Of a stretch of 37,081 bases of DNA, positions 11,722 to 32,923 are shown one piece after another. This stretch comes from a virus, in the UHGV virus genome UHGV-0136052; one strand, written 5' to 3'. Every line of letters starts with the position of its first letter. The first letter of the stretch is position 1. Below the pieces are notes generated by a model, which was given only the letters and a program-made list of their open reading frames with translations, made no database searches and was not told the DNA's origin. The translations under genes were made by a program, and so were the position numbers.

Positions 11722-13017
11722 TCACGCGGTCTGGTTAGGCAGACCAACACCAATTGCCTCTGGTCGTACAGCACATGCTGAATACCACACAGCAATACGG
11801 CACTTACCAGACAGAGTGTTGATATCACCCTGCGTTGCGAAGATGCCGTTAACACCAATACCAGGAATGCTGAAGGAAGACGTTTTCATACCAGCAAACA
11901 GTTCATGGGTTACCGGGATCGGCTGAGACAGCAGGCGGATTGAGTCATCAGCCCAGAACACGTTAGCGGTGGTTGTTGCCACGTTCAGAACGTTCACCGG
12001 AGTGTTATCAGCAAGAGAGGTGTTTACATTAGCGTAAGCCTTCTCTTCTTTTGTCAGTGACGCGTCATCCAGTGCAATCGGCTTCGGCGTGATTTCGATG
12101 TGAGTACTATCGATCACACGGGTGATTGAGAAAGTCGCATCATCAGTCAGCACGTTCTTCGCCATCTGAGACAGGAATTTCACACCAGTGAAGCTGATTT
12201 TGTCGCCGCGCTTAAATCCGGCGGTGGAGGATACGGTCACCGTTGCAACACGATTGTCGACGTTCTCTTTGTTACCATCGGTATCAAGGGTGTATGCCTG
12301 CGGCTTAAACTTCTGCGCACCAGAAACAGTTACACCAGTAGCGGTTGATTTGGTAACTGCCGGAAGTTTCGGTGAGCGAAGAATTTCATCAAAGCCAGCA
12401 ATCTGACGCTGAATAGTACCGTTGCGATACGCTTCTTCAGGAACTCGCCCGAAGATGTCGCCATCTACCAAGTTGCGGCCTGCTTTGCGGTAATCGTCAG
12501 GGTTCAGGAAGTAACTGATGCCCATGTCGCGGTTGAGTTCGCGGGAGAACATCAGGCGCTCTGCATCAGACACAAAATCCCAGCCAGACAGGCCTGTAGA
12601 TGGACCAATTGCGCGGGTATCGTGAACAACAAGCGAACCCATTTCAGTTGCCTGTTTGGCAATCGCTGACTCAATGTTATTCGCCAGTTTTTTGGCGGAT
12701 GCCTGGATGCGGCGACGGTAAGAACGCTCATCACGCAGGTCATCTGCACGAAGCTCGAAGAAATCGTTATCCGGATCGCCCATGTTGCATTTCACGGAGA
12801 GTTCCAGAATCCCTGTTGCGTTGCCAGTTAAATCCCAGCCAGTCTGGGTTGGCGCTTCCTGCTCAACAGGCATCCACACGGTATTGCTTGAACGCTGCAT
12901 GGATTTTGCCGGAGGGGTGTATTTTGTCACTTTGGACGCCATTGGCGTCAGGTTCTGGACGGTTTCGATGATTTCATCCAGAGCATACGTGACCAGTTGA
13001 CCTTCATTTAATGCCAT
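11722..13017 (-). CDS. Major coat protein, P22 gp5-like
   Basis: 431 aa; MALNEGQ...MQRSSNT.WMPVEQE...[21 protein letters not shown]...ATQGDI.TLSG.CRIA.WY match recalled P22 coat. Confidence 0.9.
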
Positions 13018-16107: not shown

Positions 16108-17607
16108 TTAAGTTCTCCGTGCGATGGGCCTGATTGGGGCTGGTATCTTTTTCTCTTTTGGTTTTTTGATGTCGCGCATCATTTTTGCGAAGCGGCGCAT
16201 CATGTATGCATAGCGAACGGCGGATAGCACGTCGTCGTTAAGCTTGACGATTTTCCCGTTTTCATCACGGTGATAGAGGCGGAACTCCTCAAAGAATGGC
16301 TCACAGGTGTTGAATACTTTGAAGCGACCGTCGAGCATCATGTCTCGCAATTCAGTGATGCCAGGCTCAACAGCATTACCGCCATCAGGCCATGTCGCAT
16401 GCTCCTGCAACATCATAAAACCAGCGTCCGCGTACTGCCCTTTAAGCTGCTCACCGCCGCCCTTCTCATGCTGGTTTCCGTCATGAGGCCATGCGGTTGG
16501 CACTTTATGCGCCCATGATTTAACAGCTCACCACGCCTGAACGGCTGTCTTTTCTTTCGCCTTCCACACGCGTGAAACGTAGATTGTGTCTGCGTCCTTA
16601 TCCCACCAAAGCTGAACCTGCGCCTGAGGGTGATCCCATCCGAAATCCATCCCACCAATTACGTAGAAGTGATCAGGACACTCGAACGGCTGACACTTAA
16701 TCGTCTCTTCCGGTATCTGGAAGATTCGACCGCTACCCATCGTAGGAATACCGCGAGCACGCGCCTCTCTCTCATGCTCTGGATAGGATGCGATGATTTG
16801 CTCTTTCTGCTCGTCGGTATAGTGCTCAGCGTCATAGATGGTCATGTTGACCACTTTCTGCGACTTGCTGGGGTTCTTCAGGAACTTGGTAACAACGTCA
16901 GACATCCCCATCAGCGGGGTAAACGTCAGAATTGAGAATTGCCCGTATTTGTTGGTACGGGTAAGCCCTTCGCCATAAATGCTGTATGGTGGTTCTTCGT
17001 CAAACCACACGCCGTGGATTGTGTCACCCTGCCAGCGAGCACGGCCTTGCGAGTATGGTTTGAAGTAGCAGATTGAAATGCCATCTTCAACGCCATCAGC
17101 CGTGTGATGCTTAACCAGAAGATGATCAACAAGGTTCGGAAAGAAAGGAGACTTCTTCCAGCTAATGATGTCTTCTTTCGGTATGGAACCGTAGCCAGGT
17201 TCACCATTCTCTTCGATACGACCGCACAGGATGCGTTGAGTCGTTTTGGTTACAGTCTCGTTTGTCTCTCCACCAATCCAGAAGACAACAGGCTCATAGA
17301 AACGCTTACCTTTCCACTCACCGCCATATTTACCATCAGCAGGATAGCCTTTTGTGCCCGGATAACGCCCGGTAAGGTGAAACGCGACTTCAGCAGCACC
17401 AGTAAATGACTTACCAAGCTGGTTACCAGCCATAAAACATCGCTCTGGATAGTCATGCCCGGCGTCGATGAACTCACGCTGTTTGCTGTATGGCGTAAAT
17501 TCATATAGCAGGTGTGTGTTACGGTAGTTCTCTTCTTCTTCGAGTAGCTCGAGCAATTCGATTTGCTCTTCGTCGCTCAGGTTATCAAGAATCGCGTCCA
17601 GTTCCAC
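16108..17607 (-). pseudogene. Terminase large subunit, P22 gp2-like, interrupted by in-frame TGA at 16528-16530 (codon 360 of 499)
   Basis: Two ORFs (359 aa and 131 aa) share one frame and are separated only by a TGA; total 499 codons equals recalled P22 gp2 length. Confidence 0.75.
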
Positions 17608-19506: not shown

Positions 19507-19944
19507 TTATTTCAGGCATTGCGTCCTGATGTATTCTTGCAGGTAGTTAACCTGCGCGGTTATCTTGTCGATTCCACTTCGGAGACGGTAATAATTGAGT
19601 TCAGCATCTGCTGTAAGTCTTGGGCTTTCTCCATCGCCCATGCCGCTGGCTCCGGTCTTTGACTTTGCACAGGAGGCGGCGACTTGCAGCCGCTTACGCC
19701 CAGCAGAAACATCATCACGGAGACTTTCGATAGTCGCGTTAGCATCAGCAAGCTCCTTTGTATATCTGGCATCGAGTTCTGCTACATCACGTTGACGCTT
19801 CTGCATATCAGCGATGATGGATGTGGCTTTATCGCGCTGGTCTTTGTAGGCGATGGCGTTATCACGGTAATGATTAACAGCCCATGACAGGCAGACGATG
19901 ATGCAGATAACCAGAGCGGAGATAATCGCGGTGACTCTGCTCAT
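19507..19944 (-). CDS. Rz: Spanin inner-membrane subunit Rz
   Basis: N-terminus [31 protein letters not shown] matches recalled lambda Rz. Confidence 0.9.
19560..19745 (-). CDS. Rz1: Spanin outer-membrane lipoprotein Rz1, embedded in Rz in another frame
   Basis: Lipobox LLGVSGC followed by Pro-rich region. Confidence 0.7.
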
Positions 19945-20417
19945 ACCTCAATCTCTCTGACCGTTCCGCCCGCTTCTTTGAATTTTGCAATCAGGCTGTC
20001 AGCCTTATGCTCGAACTGACCATAACCAGCGCCCGGCAGTGAAGCCCAGATATTGCTGCAACGGTCGATTGCCTGACGGATATCACCGCGATCAATCATC
20101 GGTAAAGCGCCACGCTCCTTAATCTGCTGCAATGCCACAGCGTCCTGGCTTTTCGGAGAGAAGTCTTTCAGGCCAAGCTGCTTACGGTAGGCATCCCACC
20201 AACGGGAAAGAAGCTGGTAACGTCCGGCGGCTGTTGATTTGAGTTTGGGGTTTAGCGTGACAAGTTTGCGAGGGTGATCGGAGTAATCAGTGAATAGCTC
20301 TCCGCCAACAATGACGTCATAACCATGATTTCTGGTTTTCTGTCGTCCGTTATCAGTTCCCTCTGACCACGCCAGCATATCGAGGAACGCCTTACGTTGA
20401 TTATTGATTTCCACCAT
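19941..20417 (-). CDS. R: Endolysin R (lytic transglycosylase), near-identical to lambda R
   Basis: 158 aa, [39 protein letters not shown]... matches recalled lambda R. Confidence 0.95.
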
Positions 20418-20724
20418 CTTCTACTCCGGCTTTTTTAGCAGCGAAGCGTTTGATAAGCGAACCAATCGAGTCAGTACCGATGTAGCCGATGAACACGCTC
20501 GTTATATAAGCGAGATTGCTACTTAGTCCGGCGAAGTCGAGAAGGTCACGAATGAACCAGGCGATAATGGCGCACATCGTTGCGTCGATTACTGTTTTTG
20601 TAAACGCACCGCCATTATATCTGCCGCGAAGGTACGCCATTGCAAACGCAAGGATTGCCCCGATGCCTTGTTCCTTTGCCGCGAGAATGGCGGCTAACAG
20701 GTCATGTTTTTCTGGCATCTTCAT
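20401..20724 (-). CDS. S: Holin S, near-identical to lambda S
   Basis: [39 protein letters not shown]... with Met1-Lys2-Met3 dual-start motif. Confidence 0.95.
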
Positions 20725-20966
20725 GTCTTACCCCCAATAAGGGGATTTGCTCTATTTAATTAGGAATAAGGTCGATTACTGATAGAACAAATCCAGGCTA
20801 CTGTGTTTAGTAATCAGATTTGTTCGTGACCGATATGCACGGGCAAAACGGCATGAGGTTGTTAGCGCAGCCTCTTGCCACCCGCTTTCACGAAGGTCAT
20901 GTGTAGAAGGCCGCAGCGTAACTATCACTGATGAATTCAGGATAACCAGTGGCTACGGCTCAGTTA

Positions 20967-21042
20967 TGGTGCTGATTAACGGACTTGAACCGCCACCCAT
21001 TCGCTTACAAGGCGACTGCTCTACCATTGGAGCTAAACCAGC
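20967..21042 (-). tRNA. tRNA-like gene, anticodon UGU (Thr) with encoded CCA; some stems contain G-U pairs or mismatches
   Basis: Hand-folded cloverleaf: D-arm GCTC/GAGC, anticodon loop CTTGTAA, T-loop GGTTCAAGTCC. Confidence 0.5.
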
Positions 21043-21047
21043 ATGTT

Positions 21048-21122
21048 TGGCGGGACAGCGTGGACTCGAACCACGATAAGAAGGTTAACAGCCTTCCGTA
21101 ATGACCTTTATACGACTGACCC
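21048..21122 (-). tRNA. tRNA-like gene, anticodon GUU (Asn) with encoded CCA; acceptor and D stems each contain a mismatch
   Basis: Hand-folded cloverleaf: anticodon arm GAAGG-CTGTTAA-CCTTC, T-arm CGTGG-TTCGAGT-CCACG. Confidence 0.55.
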
Positions 21123-21185
21123 AAATAAAAAAAGCCACCGTTGCAACTTAAGAGTCACTAACGGCAGCTTACCCTCTAATTATGG

Positions 21186-21704
21186 CTAAATGGCTAATTG
21201 CATGTCAAGACTTTTAACAGCAATATGCTTAACTTTCTCTACACGTTTACGCATTTTGAAAGCATTTTGCATTGGCTGGTATAAAACAAATAATGACGCT
21301 TTCAGGATGTCGTCAATTTCGTTTCTACAGGTTGCCAGTGAAGGTTTTCGCCATCCCTCGCCACCACGTCCACACATCTTGCGTGGCTTTGCAGTCGCGT
21401 GATAGTAGGATGCAATTGCTCGCTTAGATGAACCATGAGCGTAGTAGCTGAGGAGGATGCCAAAGGCTTTCTTGTCAATGCACATGACGGAATCGACGAC
21501 CTGAGAAATCAACATTCCATCATCATCATTACACATTGGCCTTGTCATAACTCTTCCCGGCTCTACGCTCTCCATGAACTTCGCTATTACGCTGCTCATG
21601 CGCTTTTCCAGACGACCTGAATAAACCCATGCTCCCCACAGTTCAAGCCAGCCACTCAGCCACTCGTGCTGCTCTTTGGTGAGGTTTAGTTCTCTTATGC
21701 TCAT
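21186..21704 (-). CDS. Q: Late-gene antiterminator Q-like
   Basis: 172 aa between nin region and lysis cassette; identity rests mainly on position. Confidence 0.6.
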   Translation of the reverse strand: MSIRELNLTKEQHEWLSGWLELWGAWVYSGRLEKRMSSVIAKFMESVEPGRVMTRPMCNDDDGMLISQVVDSVMCIDKKAFGILLSYYAHGSSKRAIASYYHATAKPRKMCGRGGEGWRKPSLATCRNEIDDILKASLFVLYQPMQNAFKMRKRVEKVKHIAVKSLDMQLAI

Positions 21705-30210: not shown

Positions 30211-30345
30211 ATGATGCACTTTCAGCTCGCGGGTAGCGGCGTCATGTCCGCTTTCTACCCGCACGAATCTGAATTATCACGCCGAGTTAAACAATTAATC
30301 AGAGCAGCAAAGAAACAACTGGAGGCGTTATGCGCAATGAAATAG
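30211..30345 (+). CDS. cIII: CIII-like small protein (44 aa)
   Basis: AAGGAG RBS; amphipathic ESELSRRVKQLIRAAKKQLE resembles CIII central helix; position before kil. Confidence 0.4.
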   Translation: MMHFQLAGSGVMSAFYPHESELSRRVKQLIRAAKKQLEALCAMK

Positions 30346-30482
30346 CCATTAATCACCAGATGCTTCGTGCTGCACAGAACAAAGCAGTAATAGCCCGATT
30401 TATTGGTGATTCAAAAATGTGGCTTGAAGCAAATAAAGCGATGAAATCAGCTATCAACCTTCCATGGTATCGCAGGAAATGA
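30330..30482 (+). CDS. kil: Kil-like small protein (50 aa)
   Basis: Motif IARFIGDSKMW resembles recalled lambda Kil (ATFIGDEKMF); position after cIII-like gene. Confidence 0.45.
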   Translation: MRNEIAINHQMLRAAQNKAVIARFIGDSKMWLEANKAMKSAINLPWYRRK

Positions 30483-30637
30483 GTTTTACAGATAACTGGT
30501 CAGACGAAGAATTCATTCGTCAGATGAAAGAATTAATCGGTAACGAAGGAGATATGCATGCCACTTGCAACCACAGTGAAGGAGAGCAAGTTACAGAGAC
30601 GCATGTACACGCAGAAAGCTCTCTGGTATCGCCATAA
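30479..30637 (+). CDS. Small hypothetical protein (52 aa), ATGA-coupled to kil-like gene
   Basis: Short ORF filling gap before erf. Confidence 0.3.
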   Translation: MSFTDNWSDEEFIRQMKELIGNEGDMHATCNHSEGEQVTETHVHAESSLVSP

Positions 30638-30738
30638 TGGCGACCGCGAAGGAATGCGGGTATGTCTTAATTTGTCCCGAGTCGAAGTATTAAATCAGCG
30701 TTATTTCCTTGGGTCATGTCCATTCTGAGAACAATCAT

Positions 30739-31344
30739 ATGAGCAAAGAATTTTACGCAAGACTGGCAGCTATTCAGGAGAATCTGAACGCGCCAAAGAA
30801 TCAGTACAACTCATTCGGTAAATATAAATACAGAAGCTGCGAAGATATTCTTGAAGGCGTTAAGCCGTTACTGAATGGCCTGTTTTTATCAATCAGCGAT
30901 GAAGTTGTGTTGATTGGTGATCGGTATTATGTGAAAGCCACGGCAACTATTACCGATGGCGAAAACAGTCATACGGCAACCGCTCTTGCACGAGAGGAAG
31001 AAAGCAAGAAAGGAATGGATTCTGCACAAGTTACGGGAGCTACAAGCTCTTATGCACGCAAGTATTGCCTCAATGGTTTGTTCGGCATTGATGATGCGAA
31101 AGATGCAGATACCGACGAGCATAAACATCAGCAGAACGCAGCAGCAAAGCAATCAAAACCATCACCTACACCTGAACAGGTTCTAAAAGCATTCACTGAC
31201 GCAGCAATGCAGAAAAACACCGTAGAAGAGCTTAAACAGGCGTTCGCCAAAGCGTGGAAGATGCTCGAAGGTACACCGGAGCAGCACAAAGCGCAGGACG
31301 TTTACAACATCAGACGAGACGAATTAGAAGGGGCAACTGCTTAA
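30739..31344 (+). CDS. erf: Single-strand annealing recombinase Erf
   Basis: MSKEFYARLAAIQENLNAPKNQYNSFGKYKYRSCEDILEGVKPLL...GATSSYARKYCLNGLFGIDDAKDAD matches recalled P22 Erf. Confidence 0.85.
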   Translation: MSKEFYARLAAIQENLNAPKNQYNSFGKYKYRSCEDILEGVKPLLNGLFLSISDEVVLIGDRYYVKATATITDGENSHTATALAREEESKKGMDSAQVTGATSSYARKYCLNGLFGIDDAKDADTDEHKHQQNAAAKQSKPSPTPEQVLKAFTDAAMQKNTVEELKQAFAKAWKMLEGTPEQHKAQDVYNIRRDELEGATA

Positions 31345-31727
31345 TGGCACACTCGATTACTGTAAGACTAAACAAGCCAGCAAGAGAGTTTCAGGCCGGG
31401 GAAAATATCGGATTCAATATCCGTGCTGGCGTTCAGTATTACGATCGCCAGACAAAAAAGAAAGAATGGACAAACTACAGCGCCGTTGTATTTGCCAAGC
31501 CGGGAGCGCAAGCGGATTACTACCGTAGTATTCTTGTTGAAGGTGGCATTGTAGAAATTACCGGAGAAAACATCAGGGTTGATGTTTATCAGGGGCAAAA
31601 TGGTCAATCAATCACTCTTGAATTACTGAATGCAAAGATTGGATTTGCAACATCAGGAAACTGCCAACAGCAACAAAGTAGCAATCATCAAAATCATCCT
31701 GAATACGATGATTCAATTCCCTTCTAA
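31344..31727 (+). CDS. ssb: Single-stranded DNA-binding protein-like (short SSB with acidic DDSIPF tail)
   Basis: From internal Met overlapping erf stop; C-terminal ...PEYDDSIPF typical of SSB tails. Confidence 0.6.
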   Translation: MAHSITVRLNKPAREFQAGENIGFNIRAGVQYYDRQTKKKEWTNYSAVVFAKPGAQADYYRSILVEGGIVEITGENIRVDVYQGQNGQSITLELLNAKIGFATSGNCQQQQSSNHQNHPEYDDSIPF

Positions 31728-31750
31728 ATTAGCAATATAAGGATTCCATT

Positions 31751-32044
31751 ATGCCAGCGCCTATGTATGGTGCGGATGACCCGCGCCGCTGTTCCGGCAA
31801 ATCAGTATCGGAGGTGCTGGATAAATTCAGAAAAAACTACGACCTGATAATGTCGCTACCGCAGGAAACGAAAGAGGAAAAGGAATTTCGTCATTGTATA
31901 TGGCTTGCAGAGAAAGAAGAACGCGAGCGAATTTACCAGACATCAATCCGACCATTCCGTAAAGCCACATATACCCACTTCCCTGAAATTGACCCACGCC
32001 TGCGTAATTACCGCTCACGCTATGGCGCTATCAGTAATGACTGA
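31751..32044 (+). CDS. Hypothetical early protein (97 aa)
   Basis: ORF in early-left operon; no family recognised. Confidence 0.5.
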
Positions 32045-32219
32045 GGAATTTACCATGAGAGGACTTGCATACAATCCCGGCATTCTTCCGGCAGAAATGA
32101 TTATTCGCCAACGCGTAAAGCCAATGCCATCGAGAGAGGAATTGCTTAAGAGAAATTCTTTTCCTTCAGTGAATCAAAACAAATATCTGAATGCGATGTG
32201 GCGGAGTGGGAAGAAATGA
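32041..32219 (+). CDS. Small hypothetical early protein
   Basis: Short ORF, start approximate. Confidence 0.25.
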
Positions 32220-32923
32220 AACAAATGTCACTAATTGAGATGGATGGTTTTCTGAAAGGTAAATGCATCCCACGTGATTTAAAGGTTAACGAAACAAACG
32301 CTGAATATCTTGTCCGTAAGTTCGGTGAACTTGAATCAAAACTCAACGAGCAACGCGAGTATTACGAGGGAGTAATCGCGGATGGAAGTAAGCACATAGC
32401 AGAACTGGAAAAACAATGCGCCGAATGGGAGCGAAAAGCATTAAGCAACTTTGAAGAGTGTGCTGCGATGGCTGAACGTATCGAAGAGTTGCAGACAAAA
32501 TCTGCACCAGATTCGTTTGGCATCATCGGTGAAAATATTCGAACACAGGATAATCGAATAACGTCAGACCCTATGTTTTGTGTGTATCAAAAGCGCGAAA
32601 TCGTTGTTGATGCTGATTATGACTATGACCGGATTGTCTGGGTTGATGAAGATGGCAATGAAGCAAATAAACGCCAAAGTCGTCGTCTCGAACTACTTCA
32701 TGAAAACTTTCGAGAACCACCAGAAAAATGGCGGCGCGTTGCTGTGAAAGATATTGATGAGTTCGTTACTTGCTGTTTCACCGAACAGGGGTGTAAAGAC
32801 TACCTGGCAGCCAATGGTCACAATCTTCGCTTGCCATTTATATATGTAAAAAGCGGTTTCAGAAACGCTGAATATATCGGCATCAGAAACTGGCTTGCTG
32901 GCATTCGCATCAAAGGAGAGTGA
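32198..32923 (+). CDS. Ead/Ea22-like early protein with coiled-coil region
   Basis: 241 aa, coiled-coil N-half and C-terminal region typical of ea-type prophage proteins. Confidence 0.5.

Follow-up and report, generated by a model that had tools for sequence, protein, structure and literature searches.

Between the late antiterminator gene Q and the lysis cassette of a lambdoid prophage lie two tandem sequences that fold as tRNAs. Are these working genes or decaying copies, and what would a temperate phage gain from this particular pair? The stretch of DNA analysed here (the window; 37,081 nucleotides at its full length) is a P22/Sf6-like Escherichia coli prophage, 99.77% identical over 36.5 kb, with 8 indels, to a prophage of E. 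coli A3, for which the RefSeq annotation already has tRNA-Thr and tRNA-Asn at the matching spot. In the reading that we consider likely, the pair is a phage-21-type cassette in a swappable slot after the late-leader terminator tR', and it combines a supply of ACA- and AAY-decoding tRNAs with insurance against tRNA-cleaving defence nucleases.

tRNA calls, structure and position in the late transcript

A first-pass annotation, made from the sequence alone, had folded two minus-strand tRNA genes by hand at 20967-21122, with encoded CCA ends and anticodons UGU (Thr) and GUU (Asn). ARAGORN and Rfam return both genes at the same coordinates with the same anticodons and CCA ends (Table 1), and exactly 2 tRNA genes were detected by ARAGORN in the whole 37-kb window. 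The matches to RF00005 (58.1 bits, E = 3.5e-10 for tRNA-Thr; 55.3 bits, E = 2e-9 for tRNA-Asn) are far from the absent call or very low covariance score that the annotation had named as counter-evidence; the gathering score of this family is 29 bits, and both tRNAs cover model positions 1-71 of 71. The same scoring gave 73.8 bits for host thrU, 72.6 for host asnT, 53.4 for host tyrU and 61.5 for the Thr tRNA of phage HK446, so that the window scores, lying amid those of host tyrU, HK446 Thr and host thrU, fall within the range of working tRNAs.

The imperfect stems that had been noticed by hand are real. In tRNA-Asn they comprise U4·U69 in the acceptor stem (the T-T mismatch of the first-pass annotation) and U13·U22 in the D stem, and in tRNA-Thr they comprise G27·A43, by which the anticodon stem is shortened, and G·U pairs at 5:68, 49:65 and 50:64. 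The determinants of aminoacylation are intact. E. coli ThrRS recognizes G1-C72, C2-G71, G35 and U36, and E. coli AsnRS recognizes G34, U35, U36 and the discriminator G73. Full sets are present in the respective window tRNAs: tRNA-Thr has G1-C72, C2-G71, G35 and U36 (acceptor GCUGGUU...AAUCAGC, anticodon UGU), and tRNA-Asn has a G1-C72 pair and G73 directly before CCA. The tertiary nucleotides U8, A14, G18G19, U33 and the T loop TTCRANY are complete in tRNA-Asn; tRNA-Thr keeps U8, G18G19, U33 and the T loop and has C rather than the near-universal A at position 14. This C14 is a trait of the Thr lineage, and the D loop of the HK446 allele, which is reported to be functional, is identical. Judged from these sequence features, both genes very probably encode functional tRNAs. 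The window tRNA-Thr is a putative ThrRS substrate, given its identity elements and the ability of the HK446 allele, 2 nt apart, to rescue phages from the P2 OLD nuclease.

Read along the minus strand, the order is Q, the late promoter PR', tR', tRNA-Asn, a 5-nt spacer, tRNA-Thr, a 241-nt untranslated stretch, holin, endolysin and Rz, which agrees with the earlier placement of the pair between Q and the lysis cassette. The Q homolog of E. coli A3 is labelled 'antiterminator Q family protein', and that of Sf6 'Q-like'. The late-leader elements were placed by mapping from the experimentally annotated phage 21 record OL657228, and PR' and tR' are annotated at corresponding places in Sf6. PR' scores 11/12 matches in a promoter scan and is the sole promoter found near the tRNAs on the minus strand. 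Between the -35 and -10 hexamers is the Q-binding-element position (21199-21184), where a TTAGCC..TTAGCC repeat is the putative binding site, and the transcription start maps near 21172. RNA folding returns the tR' hairpin followed by UUUUUUUAUUU, the U7 tract, and the first base of tRNA-Asn is the base directly after the annotated end of tR'. Because the tRNAs begin one base past tR', with PR' and Q upstream, they form part of the Q-dependent late transcript, as the first-pass annotation had proposed; the precedent it invoked for tRNA genes in the Q-S interval of lambdoid phages also holds, with phage 21, Sf6, SfI and others as examples.

Table 1 Features of the late leader, the lysis cassette and the Gp33 homolog in the window
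Feature	Coordinates	Strand	Description or basis
Late antiterminator Q	21186-21704	-	172 aa; Pfam Phage_antitermQ, 89.9 bits
Late promoter PR'	21179-21208	-	-35 TTGACA 21208-21203; -10 CATAAT 21184-21179
Late-leader terminator tR'	21123-21170	-	Long hairpin then U7; identical to annotated phage 21 terminator
tRNA-Asn(GUU)	21048-21122	-	75 nt, CCA encoded; ARAGORN; Rfam 55.3 bits
Spacer between tRNA-Asn and tRNA-Thr	21043-21047	-	5 nt, AACAU
tRNA-Thr(UGU)	20967-21042	-	76 nt, CCA encoded; ARAGORN; Rfam 58.1 bits
Untranslated stretch upstream of holin	20725-20966	-	241 nt; homologous to lambda 44945-45186, 95.9% identity
Holin S, lambda-type, first lysis-cassette gene	20401-20724	-	ORF and annotated relatives
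Endolysin	19941-20417	-	Lysis cassette ORF
Rz	19507-19944	-	Lysis cassette ORF
Homolog of HK446/HK75 Gp33	30479-30634	+	tblastn, 88% identity over 52 of 56 aa

In the proposed scheme, Q would antiterminate at PR' and RNA polymerase would pass through tR', yielding one late RNA that spans tRNA-Asn, tRNA-Thr and the genes for lysis and morphogenesis. Both tRNAs would be released by RNase P, trimmed at the 3' end by the host and charged by host synthetases, so that ACA (and ACG) and AAY codons would be decoded during late protein synthesis. Expression can be approached through phage BTP1, whose Q-tRNA region is 97% identical to that of the window. A transcriptomic study of a BTP1 lysogen names five highly expressed prophage genes (TPM > 100) and keeps the two tRNA genes apart from that list; this hints, although the study does not say so, that the BTP1 tRNA genes are also highly expressed. 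The same study has the lytic operon begin immediately past the two tRNA genes.

Maintenance of the pair and exchange of the slot

Stem imperfections had led the first-pass annotation to leave a choice between divergent phage tRNAs and decaying copies. Homologs for this question were distinct copies from 80 IMG/VR loci and from phage records, including Klebsiella phages and a bat-faeces phage; the Q-based locus set contains only loci with 97-100% identical Q and hence little divergence, and divergent copies were added from the phage records. Both partners changed at pairs 6:67, 7:66 and 28:42 among the 13 distinct sequences of the Asn lineage, and at pairs 3:70, 5:68 and 6:67 among the 17 sequences of the Thr lineage. 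The observed covariation score was reached by 0 of 500 shuffles in each lineage, and 90-94% of paired cells could pair, against 22-56% when partners were slid by one to three columns (both lineages). U4·U69 and U13·U22 of tRNA-Asn and G27·A43 of tRNA-Thr are invariant in every lineage member, Klebsiella phage copies included (17/17 Thr-lineage sequences keep G27·A43). Such invariance across a lineage marks the mismatches as fixed traits and not as damage.

Other copies of the genes are damaged: the T stem is disrupted in locus L005, G73U occurs in L052 and L057, the anticodon is GAT in L026 and L038, and L054 has a 1-nt insertion. Damage in some copies is expected for prophages, and the window copy is not among the damaged ones. 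Taken together, the alignments favour window tRNAs that are divergent and maintained over decaying copies. Thus the first half of the alternative drawn by the first-pass annotation stands and the second does not, in view of the compensatory changes, the invariant mismatches, the conserved identity elements, a functional HK446 allele only 2 nt away, and the match of G27·A43 to a published determinant of nuclease resistance.

The slot occupied by the pair is exchangeable. In the 80 loci that share a 97-100% identical Q, both the leader and the 241-nt stretch before the holin, which forms the right flank of the slot, are 97-99% conserved with or without tRNAs, and the exchangeable segment is exactly the two tRNAs. 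The slot holds Asn and Thr genes in 46 loci, an Asn gene with a GAT anticodon plus Thr in 2, Asn with a chimeric Thr and Gly(UCC) in 2, and other cassettes in 30; where the pair is present, its spacer varies between AACAT and AATAT across loci. The chimeric Thr gene contains host thrU sequence, revealing recombination through the Thr gene. The 30 other cassettes are 152-295 nt long and built on a long hairpin (GCACAACAGGTAAGAGCA...TGCTCTT.CGTTGTG), and a 156-160-nt form of them is lambda's own sequence (44785-44940). None of these alternative cassettes has an Rfam match at the gathering threshold, and permissive thresholds return only sub-threshold hammerhead type I and tmRNA-like matches. Since 30 of the 80 loci lack tRNAs despite 97-100% identical Q, the pair is dispensable; its interchangeability with a lambda-type segment identifies the tRNAs as accessory cargo, a status that speaks for a conditional benefit rather than an essential role.

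Codon demand, tRNA-cleaving nucleases and rival explanations

To our knowledge, tRNA-Thr(UGU) is the only ACA decoder of the host. Codon demand was assessed by comparing ORFs called on the window with annotated K-12 genes as the host sample, a late-gene versus host check that the first-pass annotation had also suggested. ACA makes up 18.0 per 1000 codons in late genes, compared with 4.9 in typical host genes and 3.7 in ribosomal/EF genes (odds ratio 3.7, p = 7e-18), and its share of Thr codons is 30% in late genes versus 10% in the host. Asn codons reach 52.9 per 1000 in late genes versus 34.0 in the host (odds ratio 1.6, p = 8.5e-10). One benefit of the pair would therefore probably be supply for late genes rich in ACA (3.7-fold) and Asn codons (1.6-fold) relative to the host. 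The SfI genome paper describes the same ACA bias, but no Asn bias. The most enriched late-gene codons in the window are AGA and AGG, with ACA third and ATA comparably enriched, and ARAGORN detected no tRNA for AGA/AGG in the whole window. Because AGA and AGG are more enriched than ACA yet uncovered, codon demand alone fails to predict the tRNA set; codon supply is a real but incomplete explanation.

A second benefit would probably lie in insurance when defence nucleases cleave host tRNAs, Thr(UGU) and Asn(GUU) being among the targets. The P2 OLD Toprim nuclease prefers host tRNA-Thr(UGU), encoded by thrU, as its substrate. It removes the anticodon arm by cleavage following the C of a paired CNG motif (C28-U29-G30/C40-A41-G42), and it needs a full-length stem. 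A tRNA resists OLD only if its CNG motif is altered and its anticodon stem is shortened as well, and phage Thr(UGU) tRNAs rescue from OLD by replacing the host tRNA, not by shielding it. The window tRNA-Thr reads U28-C29-G30/C40-G41-A42 where the host has CUG/CAG, an alteration of the paired CNG motif, and has lost the 27:43 pair (G27·A43), leaving a 4-bp anticodon stem. It thus carries both published OLD-resistance features, and the exact allele is predicted from its sequence to be resistant. In a 2026 preprint, a plasmid with HK446 Thr(UGU) returned plating of HK97, HK542 and Bas34 on OLD cells to near wild-type, over-expressed E. coli thrU gave no rescue from OLD, and a single Thr tRNA neither rescued lambda nor relieved OLD toxicity in recB-deficient cells. 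The OLD paper also describes one rescue tRNA ('Thr21') with C28U/G42A and a shorter stem; going by these changes, our guess is that it fits the lineage of the window tRNA-Thr.

The window phage may itself trigger this nuclease. It encodes a homolog of Gp33, a protein that the same preprint reports to trigger the P2 OLD tRNase; the gene lies within an HK446-like Kil-Gp33-Erf-Gp31-Abc2 recombination locus (30330-32044; tblastn identities to the HK446/HK75 type of 99.5% for Erf, 97.6% for Gp31 and 96.9% for Abc2). A full-length anti-OLD protein Oad2 was not found in the prophage, the match being limited to the first 43 residues. With a Gp33 homolog present and Oad2 incomplete, the phage is expected to provoke OLD and to gain from a resistant Thr tRNA. 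We note that the preprint raises another idea, in which the HK446 tRNA substitutes for a tRNA disrupted at the integration site; this idea was rejected, as the integration site of HK446 is thrW (Thr CGU) and the cassette lies elsewhere than attP.

PARIS is a second system with overlapping targets. Its nuclease AriB acts on Lys(UUU), Thr(UGU) and Asn(GUU), Thr being a prime and Asn a secondary target, and cuts at 40|41. The targets share the motif U36-A-A-U39; U39A abolishes cleavage, A41C lowers it and U16C impairs it. The window tRNA-Thr has UAAGCG and A16 (G39/G41) where its host counterpart has UAAUCA and U16, and the window tRNA-Asn has UAACCU and A16 (C39/U41) where its host counterpart has UAAUCC and U16, so that the U36-A-A-U39 motif and U16 are absent from both. 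The comparison with host tRNA-Thr and tRNA-Asn called for in the first-pass annotation therefore separates the pair from thrU (73.8 bits) and asnT (72.6 bits) at the Thr CNG motif and, in both tRNAs, at positions 39, 41 and 16. Of the three main targets of PARIS, the pair covers two. PARIS is neutralized by T5 Lys, Thr and Asn acting together, and bypass of B185 PARIS requires T5 Lys. As no tRNA-Lys(UUU) was detected by ARAGORN in the whole window, the pair is not a complete anti-PARIS kit and should not, alone, neutralize B185 PARIS. No literature linking the lambdoid Asn-Thr pair to PARIS was found. Among other nucleases, the CdiA-CT(EC869) toxin cuts host tRNA-Asn via a weak U1-A72 pair and G73, and G1-C72 variants, the form present in the phage tRNA-Asn, are poor substrates. 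A role against colicin E5 was discounted by reasoning from sequence, the U33-G34-U35 context being unaltered.

From this evidence we lean towards nuclease evasion as a major selective reason for the Thr gene, and regard it as a doubtful one for the Asn gene; a benefit from the latter is weakly supported, with no Asn bias in SfI and Asn merely a secondary AriB target. A broader version of the counter-defence reading is tentative and on balance unlikely. It would make the pair a portable cassette by which temperate enterobacterial phages counter the Toprim tRNases (P2 OLD, PARIS-like) of competing P2 prophages and P4 satellites, with the fixed oddities as resistance determinants (G27·A43, U28-A42 and the C14/A16 D loop in Thr; C39/U41, G1-C72 and U4·U69 in Asn). 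The site after tR' would then be a general hot-spot for structured-RNA cargo, including tRNA sets and hammerhead-like and tRNA-like elements, sometimes moved by HNH endonucleases.

Several rival explanations were weighed against the combination of codon supply and nuclease insurance. Pure codon supplementation for AT-richer late genes, with nuclease resistance incidental to divergence, is consistent with the enrichment of ACA and Asn codons, with the view of the SfI authors for ACA, and with a late-transcript position that coincides with peak demand. It does not account for AGA, AGG and ATA, which are at least as enriched as ACA and are uncovered, or for the convergence of the unrelated P1, N4-like, T4-like and T5 phages on Thr(UGU) and Asn(GUU), both of them nuclease targets. 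Nor does it explain why tRNA-Thr has both OLD-resistance changes, one of them a conserved stem-shortening mismatch with no obvious decoding benefit, or why the HK446 allele rescued phages from OLD when over-expressed host thrU did not; we regard codon supplementation as the whole explanation as improbable.

That the pair is a pseudogene relic in a degenerating prophage, with its stem imperfections as damage, appears highly improbable. The large terminase gene of the window prophage has an in-frame stop, a nonsense codon that may make this prophage copy incapable of lytic growth, and the capsid gene of its closest relative is frameshifted; the window tRNA-Thr also exceeds the consensus by two G·U pairs, and the damaged copies described above show that decay does occur in this family. 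Against this, the Rfam scores are far over threshold, tRNA-Asn is identical to that of the viable phages 21, HK446 and L, both Thr differences keep pairing, the mismatches are invariant in the lineage alongside compensatory changes, and the anticodon, T loop, identity elements and CCA are intact. A purely non-decoding role, whether as RNase P/RNase E processing signals, as nuclease-titrating decoys or as recombination or integration targets, is scarcely credible. The slot does hold a long hairpin, a hammerhead-like core and a tRNA-like 3' domain in sister phages, the chimera with host thrU records recombination through the Thr gene, and competitive inhibition was raised as a possibility by the PARIS authors; however, the anticodons, discriminators and synthetase identity elements are conserved and would be unneeded for processing or decoy functions, and against OLD the phage Thr tRNAs replaced the host tRNA rather than protecting it.

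The pair among known phage tRNA cassettes

The pair is already known as a phage-21-type cassette that has long been annotated and published. The Sf6 record (NC_005344) lists both genes as 'similar to phage 21' and places PR', qut and tR' upstream of them, and the pair is annotated in phage 21, BTP1, SPN9CC and further phage records. The SfI genome paper reports tandem Asn(GUU) and Thr(UGU) tRNA genes downstream of Q in SfI and one or both tRNAs likewise in Sf6, ST64T, PS3 and p21. The 156-nt pair was detected in 369 of 5426 complete E. coli genomes (about 7%) and, with varying identity, in 172 phage records. Phage 21, HK446 and phage L have the same tRNA-Asn as the window (100% identity), and the window tRNA-Thr is identical at 74/76 positions to that of HK446, phage 21 and Sf6, the differences being the transitions A49G and C68U, each of which turns a Watson-Crick pair into G·U. 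From 21170 on, tR' and tRNA-Asn are 100% identical to phage 21 and tRNA-Thr is 97% identical; the 171-nt tRNA region has 98.2% identity to HK446.

As a discovery the pair has little weight, being annotated in RefSeq for a near-identical prophage and described since phage 21, Sf6 and SfI. Its interest is that a cassette in about 7% of complete E. coli genomes bears published signatures of P2 OLD resistance. This ties an old annotation to phage tRNAs as counter-defence, extends that idea from large virulent to small temperate phages, and makes tRNA-Asn and the conserved U4·U69 candidates within it.

The cassettes of phage 21, Sf6, HK446, BTP1 and SfI share with the window the gene order, the 5-nt spacer and the start right after tR'. 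They differ in their surroundings: phage 21 has a different Q allele, promoter/Q-binding region and putative binding repeats, in HK446 the cassette lies behind a lambda-type Q, PR' and tR', and the window, compared with cassettes of the phage 21/Sf6/HK446 type, is a prophage with a terminase nonsense codon. The 2026 preprint counts one tRNA in HK446, in which both tRNAs are present. In P1, trnA-trnT encode Asn and then Thr with identical anticodons a few nucleotides apart, and the P1 Thr is 80% identical to that of the window. Unlike the window tRNAs, P1 Thr retains the CUG/CAG motif and a 5-bp anticodon stem and P1 Asn retains UAAUCA, and the P1 tandem lies in another operon, downstream of C1-controlled ban promoters. 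N4-like phages (Asn, Thr, Pro) and larger arrays also contain the Asn and Thr combination, and its recurrence in P1, N4-like phages and larger arrays points to a common pressure on these two tRNAs.

The lambdoid Stx phage 933W likewise has tRNAs in its late operon between Q and the lysis genes, ileZ-argN-argO lying between Q and stx; these have other anticodons, for the rare codons AUA and AGA/AGG, and codon usage is their classical explanation. A functional parallel is in T4 and T5, whose Thr(UGU), Asn(GUU) and Lys(UUU) tRNAs have altered determinant positions in the anticodon stem and a shortened stem, and include the same two anticodons as the window. These resistant tRNAs act by replacing the cleaved host tRNA. 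The solutions differ in detail, as T4-type Thr carries G30C/C40G and U43A and the window Thr carries changes of the C28U/G42A type together with G27·A43. They also differ in setting: T4 and T5 have large tRNA arrays that include Lys(UUU), whereas the window is a temperate phage with two tRNAs that are predicted to be expressed late.

Cassettes in the slot after Q

The segment holding both tRNA genes is a swappable slot with conserved flanks on either side. Hairpin-based cassettes of 152, 160, 197, 207 or 294 nt replace the tRNAs in 30/80 sister loci (those sharing a 97-100% identical Q), and the 160-nt type is lambda's own 44785-44940 sequence. Against Rfam Hammerhead_1, the hammerhead-like core of the 294-nt cassette scores 24.7 bits (E 0.042), short of the threshold of 34. 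The 207-nt cassette contains a D-arm-like GCTCAATGGCGAGC, followed by a terminal tRNA-like T arm and acceptor, GGAAGCCGGUUCGAUUCCGGCCGCCA; this end matches the tmRNA 3' domain weakly (20 bits, E 1e-4), and ARAGORN called no tRNA in it.

Coordinates of the slot, altered tRNA genes and other loci (L003-L082, sister loci; L085, L086 and L091, loci from phage records)
Feature	Location	Strand	Remarks
Slot in sister loci	L003-L082, roughly 60-360 nt beyond the Q stop codon		Equivalent to window 20966-21122
Hammerhead-like core, 294-nt cassette	L007 3104-3150; also L033, L063		CUGACGAG…GGACGAAAC…GUC
tRNA-like 3' end, 207-nt cassette	L013 3228-3286; also L015, L028, L030, L042, L046, L064		
Three tRNAs after Q	L043 1135-1365; L078 3083-3316		Asn, chimeric Thr, glyT-like Gly(UCC)
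Asn copy with anticodon GAT	L026 3083-3157; L038 3082-3156		Called Ile
Second gene of pair, Salmonella phage L	L085 789-866		Same in ST64T
Asn-Phe-Thr-Arg(UCU) and Asn-Phe-Thr arrays	L086 701-1020 and L091 601-838		After antiterminator
HNH_3 + AP2 endonuclease ORF, 170 aa	L011 3214-3726; also L047, L076		Pfam 66 and 35 bits
TTAGCC…TTAGCC direct repeat	Window 21184-21199	-	At phage 21 Q-binding-element position
Large terminase gene	Window 16108-17607	-	In-frame TGA at 16528-16530
HK446/HK75-type recombination locus	Window 30330-32344	+	

Altered, chimeric and expanded tRNA genes

In the two three-tRNA loci, the chimeric Thr gene joins a phage Thr 5' half to a host thrU-like 3' half, and the array looks as though the phage Thr gene had recombined with a host thrU-glyT locus. 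Its third tRNA, Gly(UCC), is another reported target of the P2 tRNase OLD. The GAT-anticodon Asn copy carries two further substitutions, reflecting either decay of the gene or a switch of anticodon. In phages L and ST64T, the second gene is a 72-nt rearranged derivative of the Thr gene, annotated as tRNA-Leu(TAA), for which ARAGORN made no call in phage L. The expanded arrays, from Klebsiella and bat-faeces phages, occupy the same position as the tRNA pair.

Recombination, terminase and capsid genes

The recombination locus in the window encodes Kil (100% identity to the HK446/HK75 type), Erf (99.5%), Gp31 (97.6%) and Abc2 (96.9%), together with an 88% homologue of Gp33, the reported P2 OLD trigger; the match to the anti-OLD protein Oad2 is limited to its first 43 aa (32216-32344). 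The terminase TGA (…AVQAW*AVKSW…) stands where the E. coli A3 prophage, 99.8% identical, has Gly, and the window prophage may therefore be packaging-defective, or a sequencing error may account for the TGA. For the capsid gene the situation is the opposite: the window has an intact copy (11722-13017) and the A3 prophage a frameshifted one.

Endonuclease and Q-binding region upstream of the tRNAs

The HNH_3 + AP2 ORF is inserted between the PR' -10 element and tR', just 5' of the tRNAs, and resembles a homing endonuclease riding beside the tRNA cassette. Phage 21 carries the Q-binding elements ATTGAGCA/AATGAGCA, whereas the direct repeat at that position in the window is a different one. The downstream terminator and tRNA-Asn are identical in the two, and tRNA-Thr matches at 74/76 positions. 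This pattern suggests that Q/QBE specificity has been swapped upstream of a common tRNA cassette.
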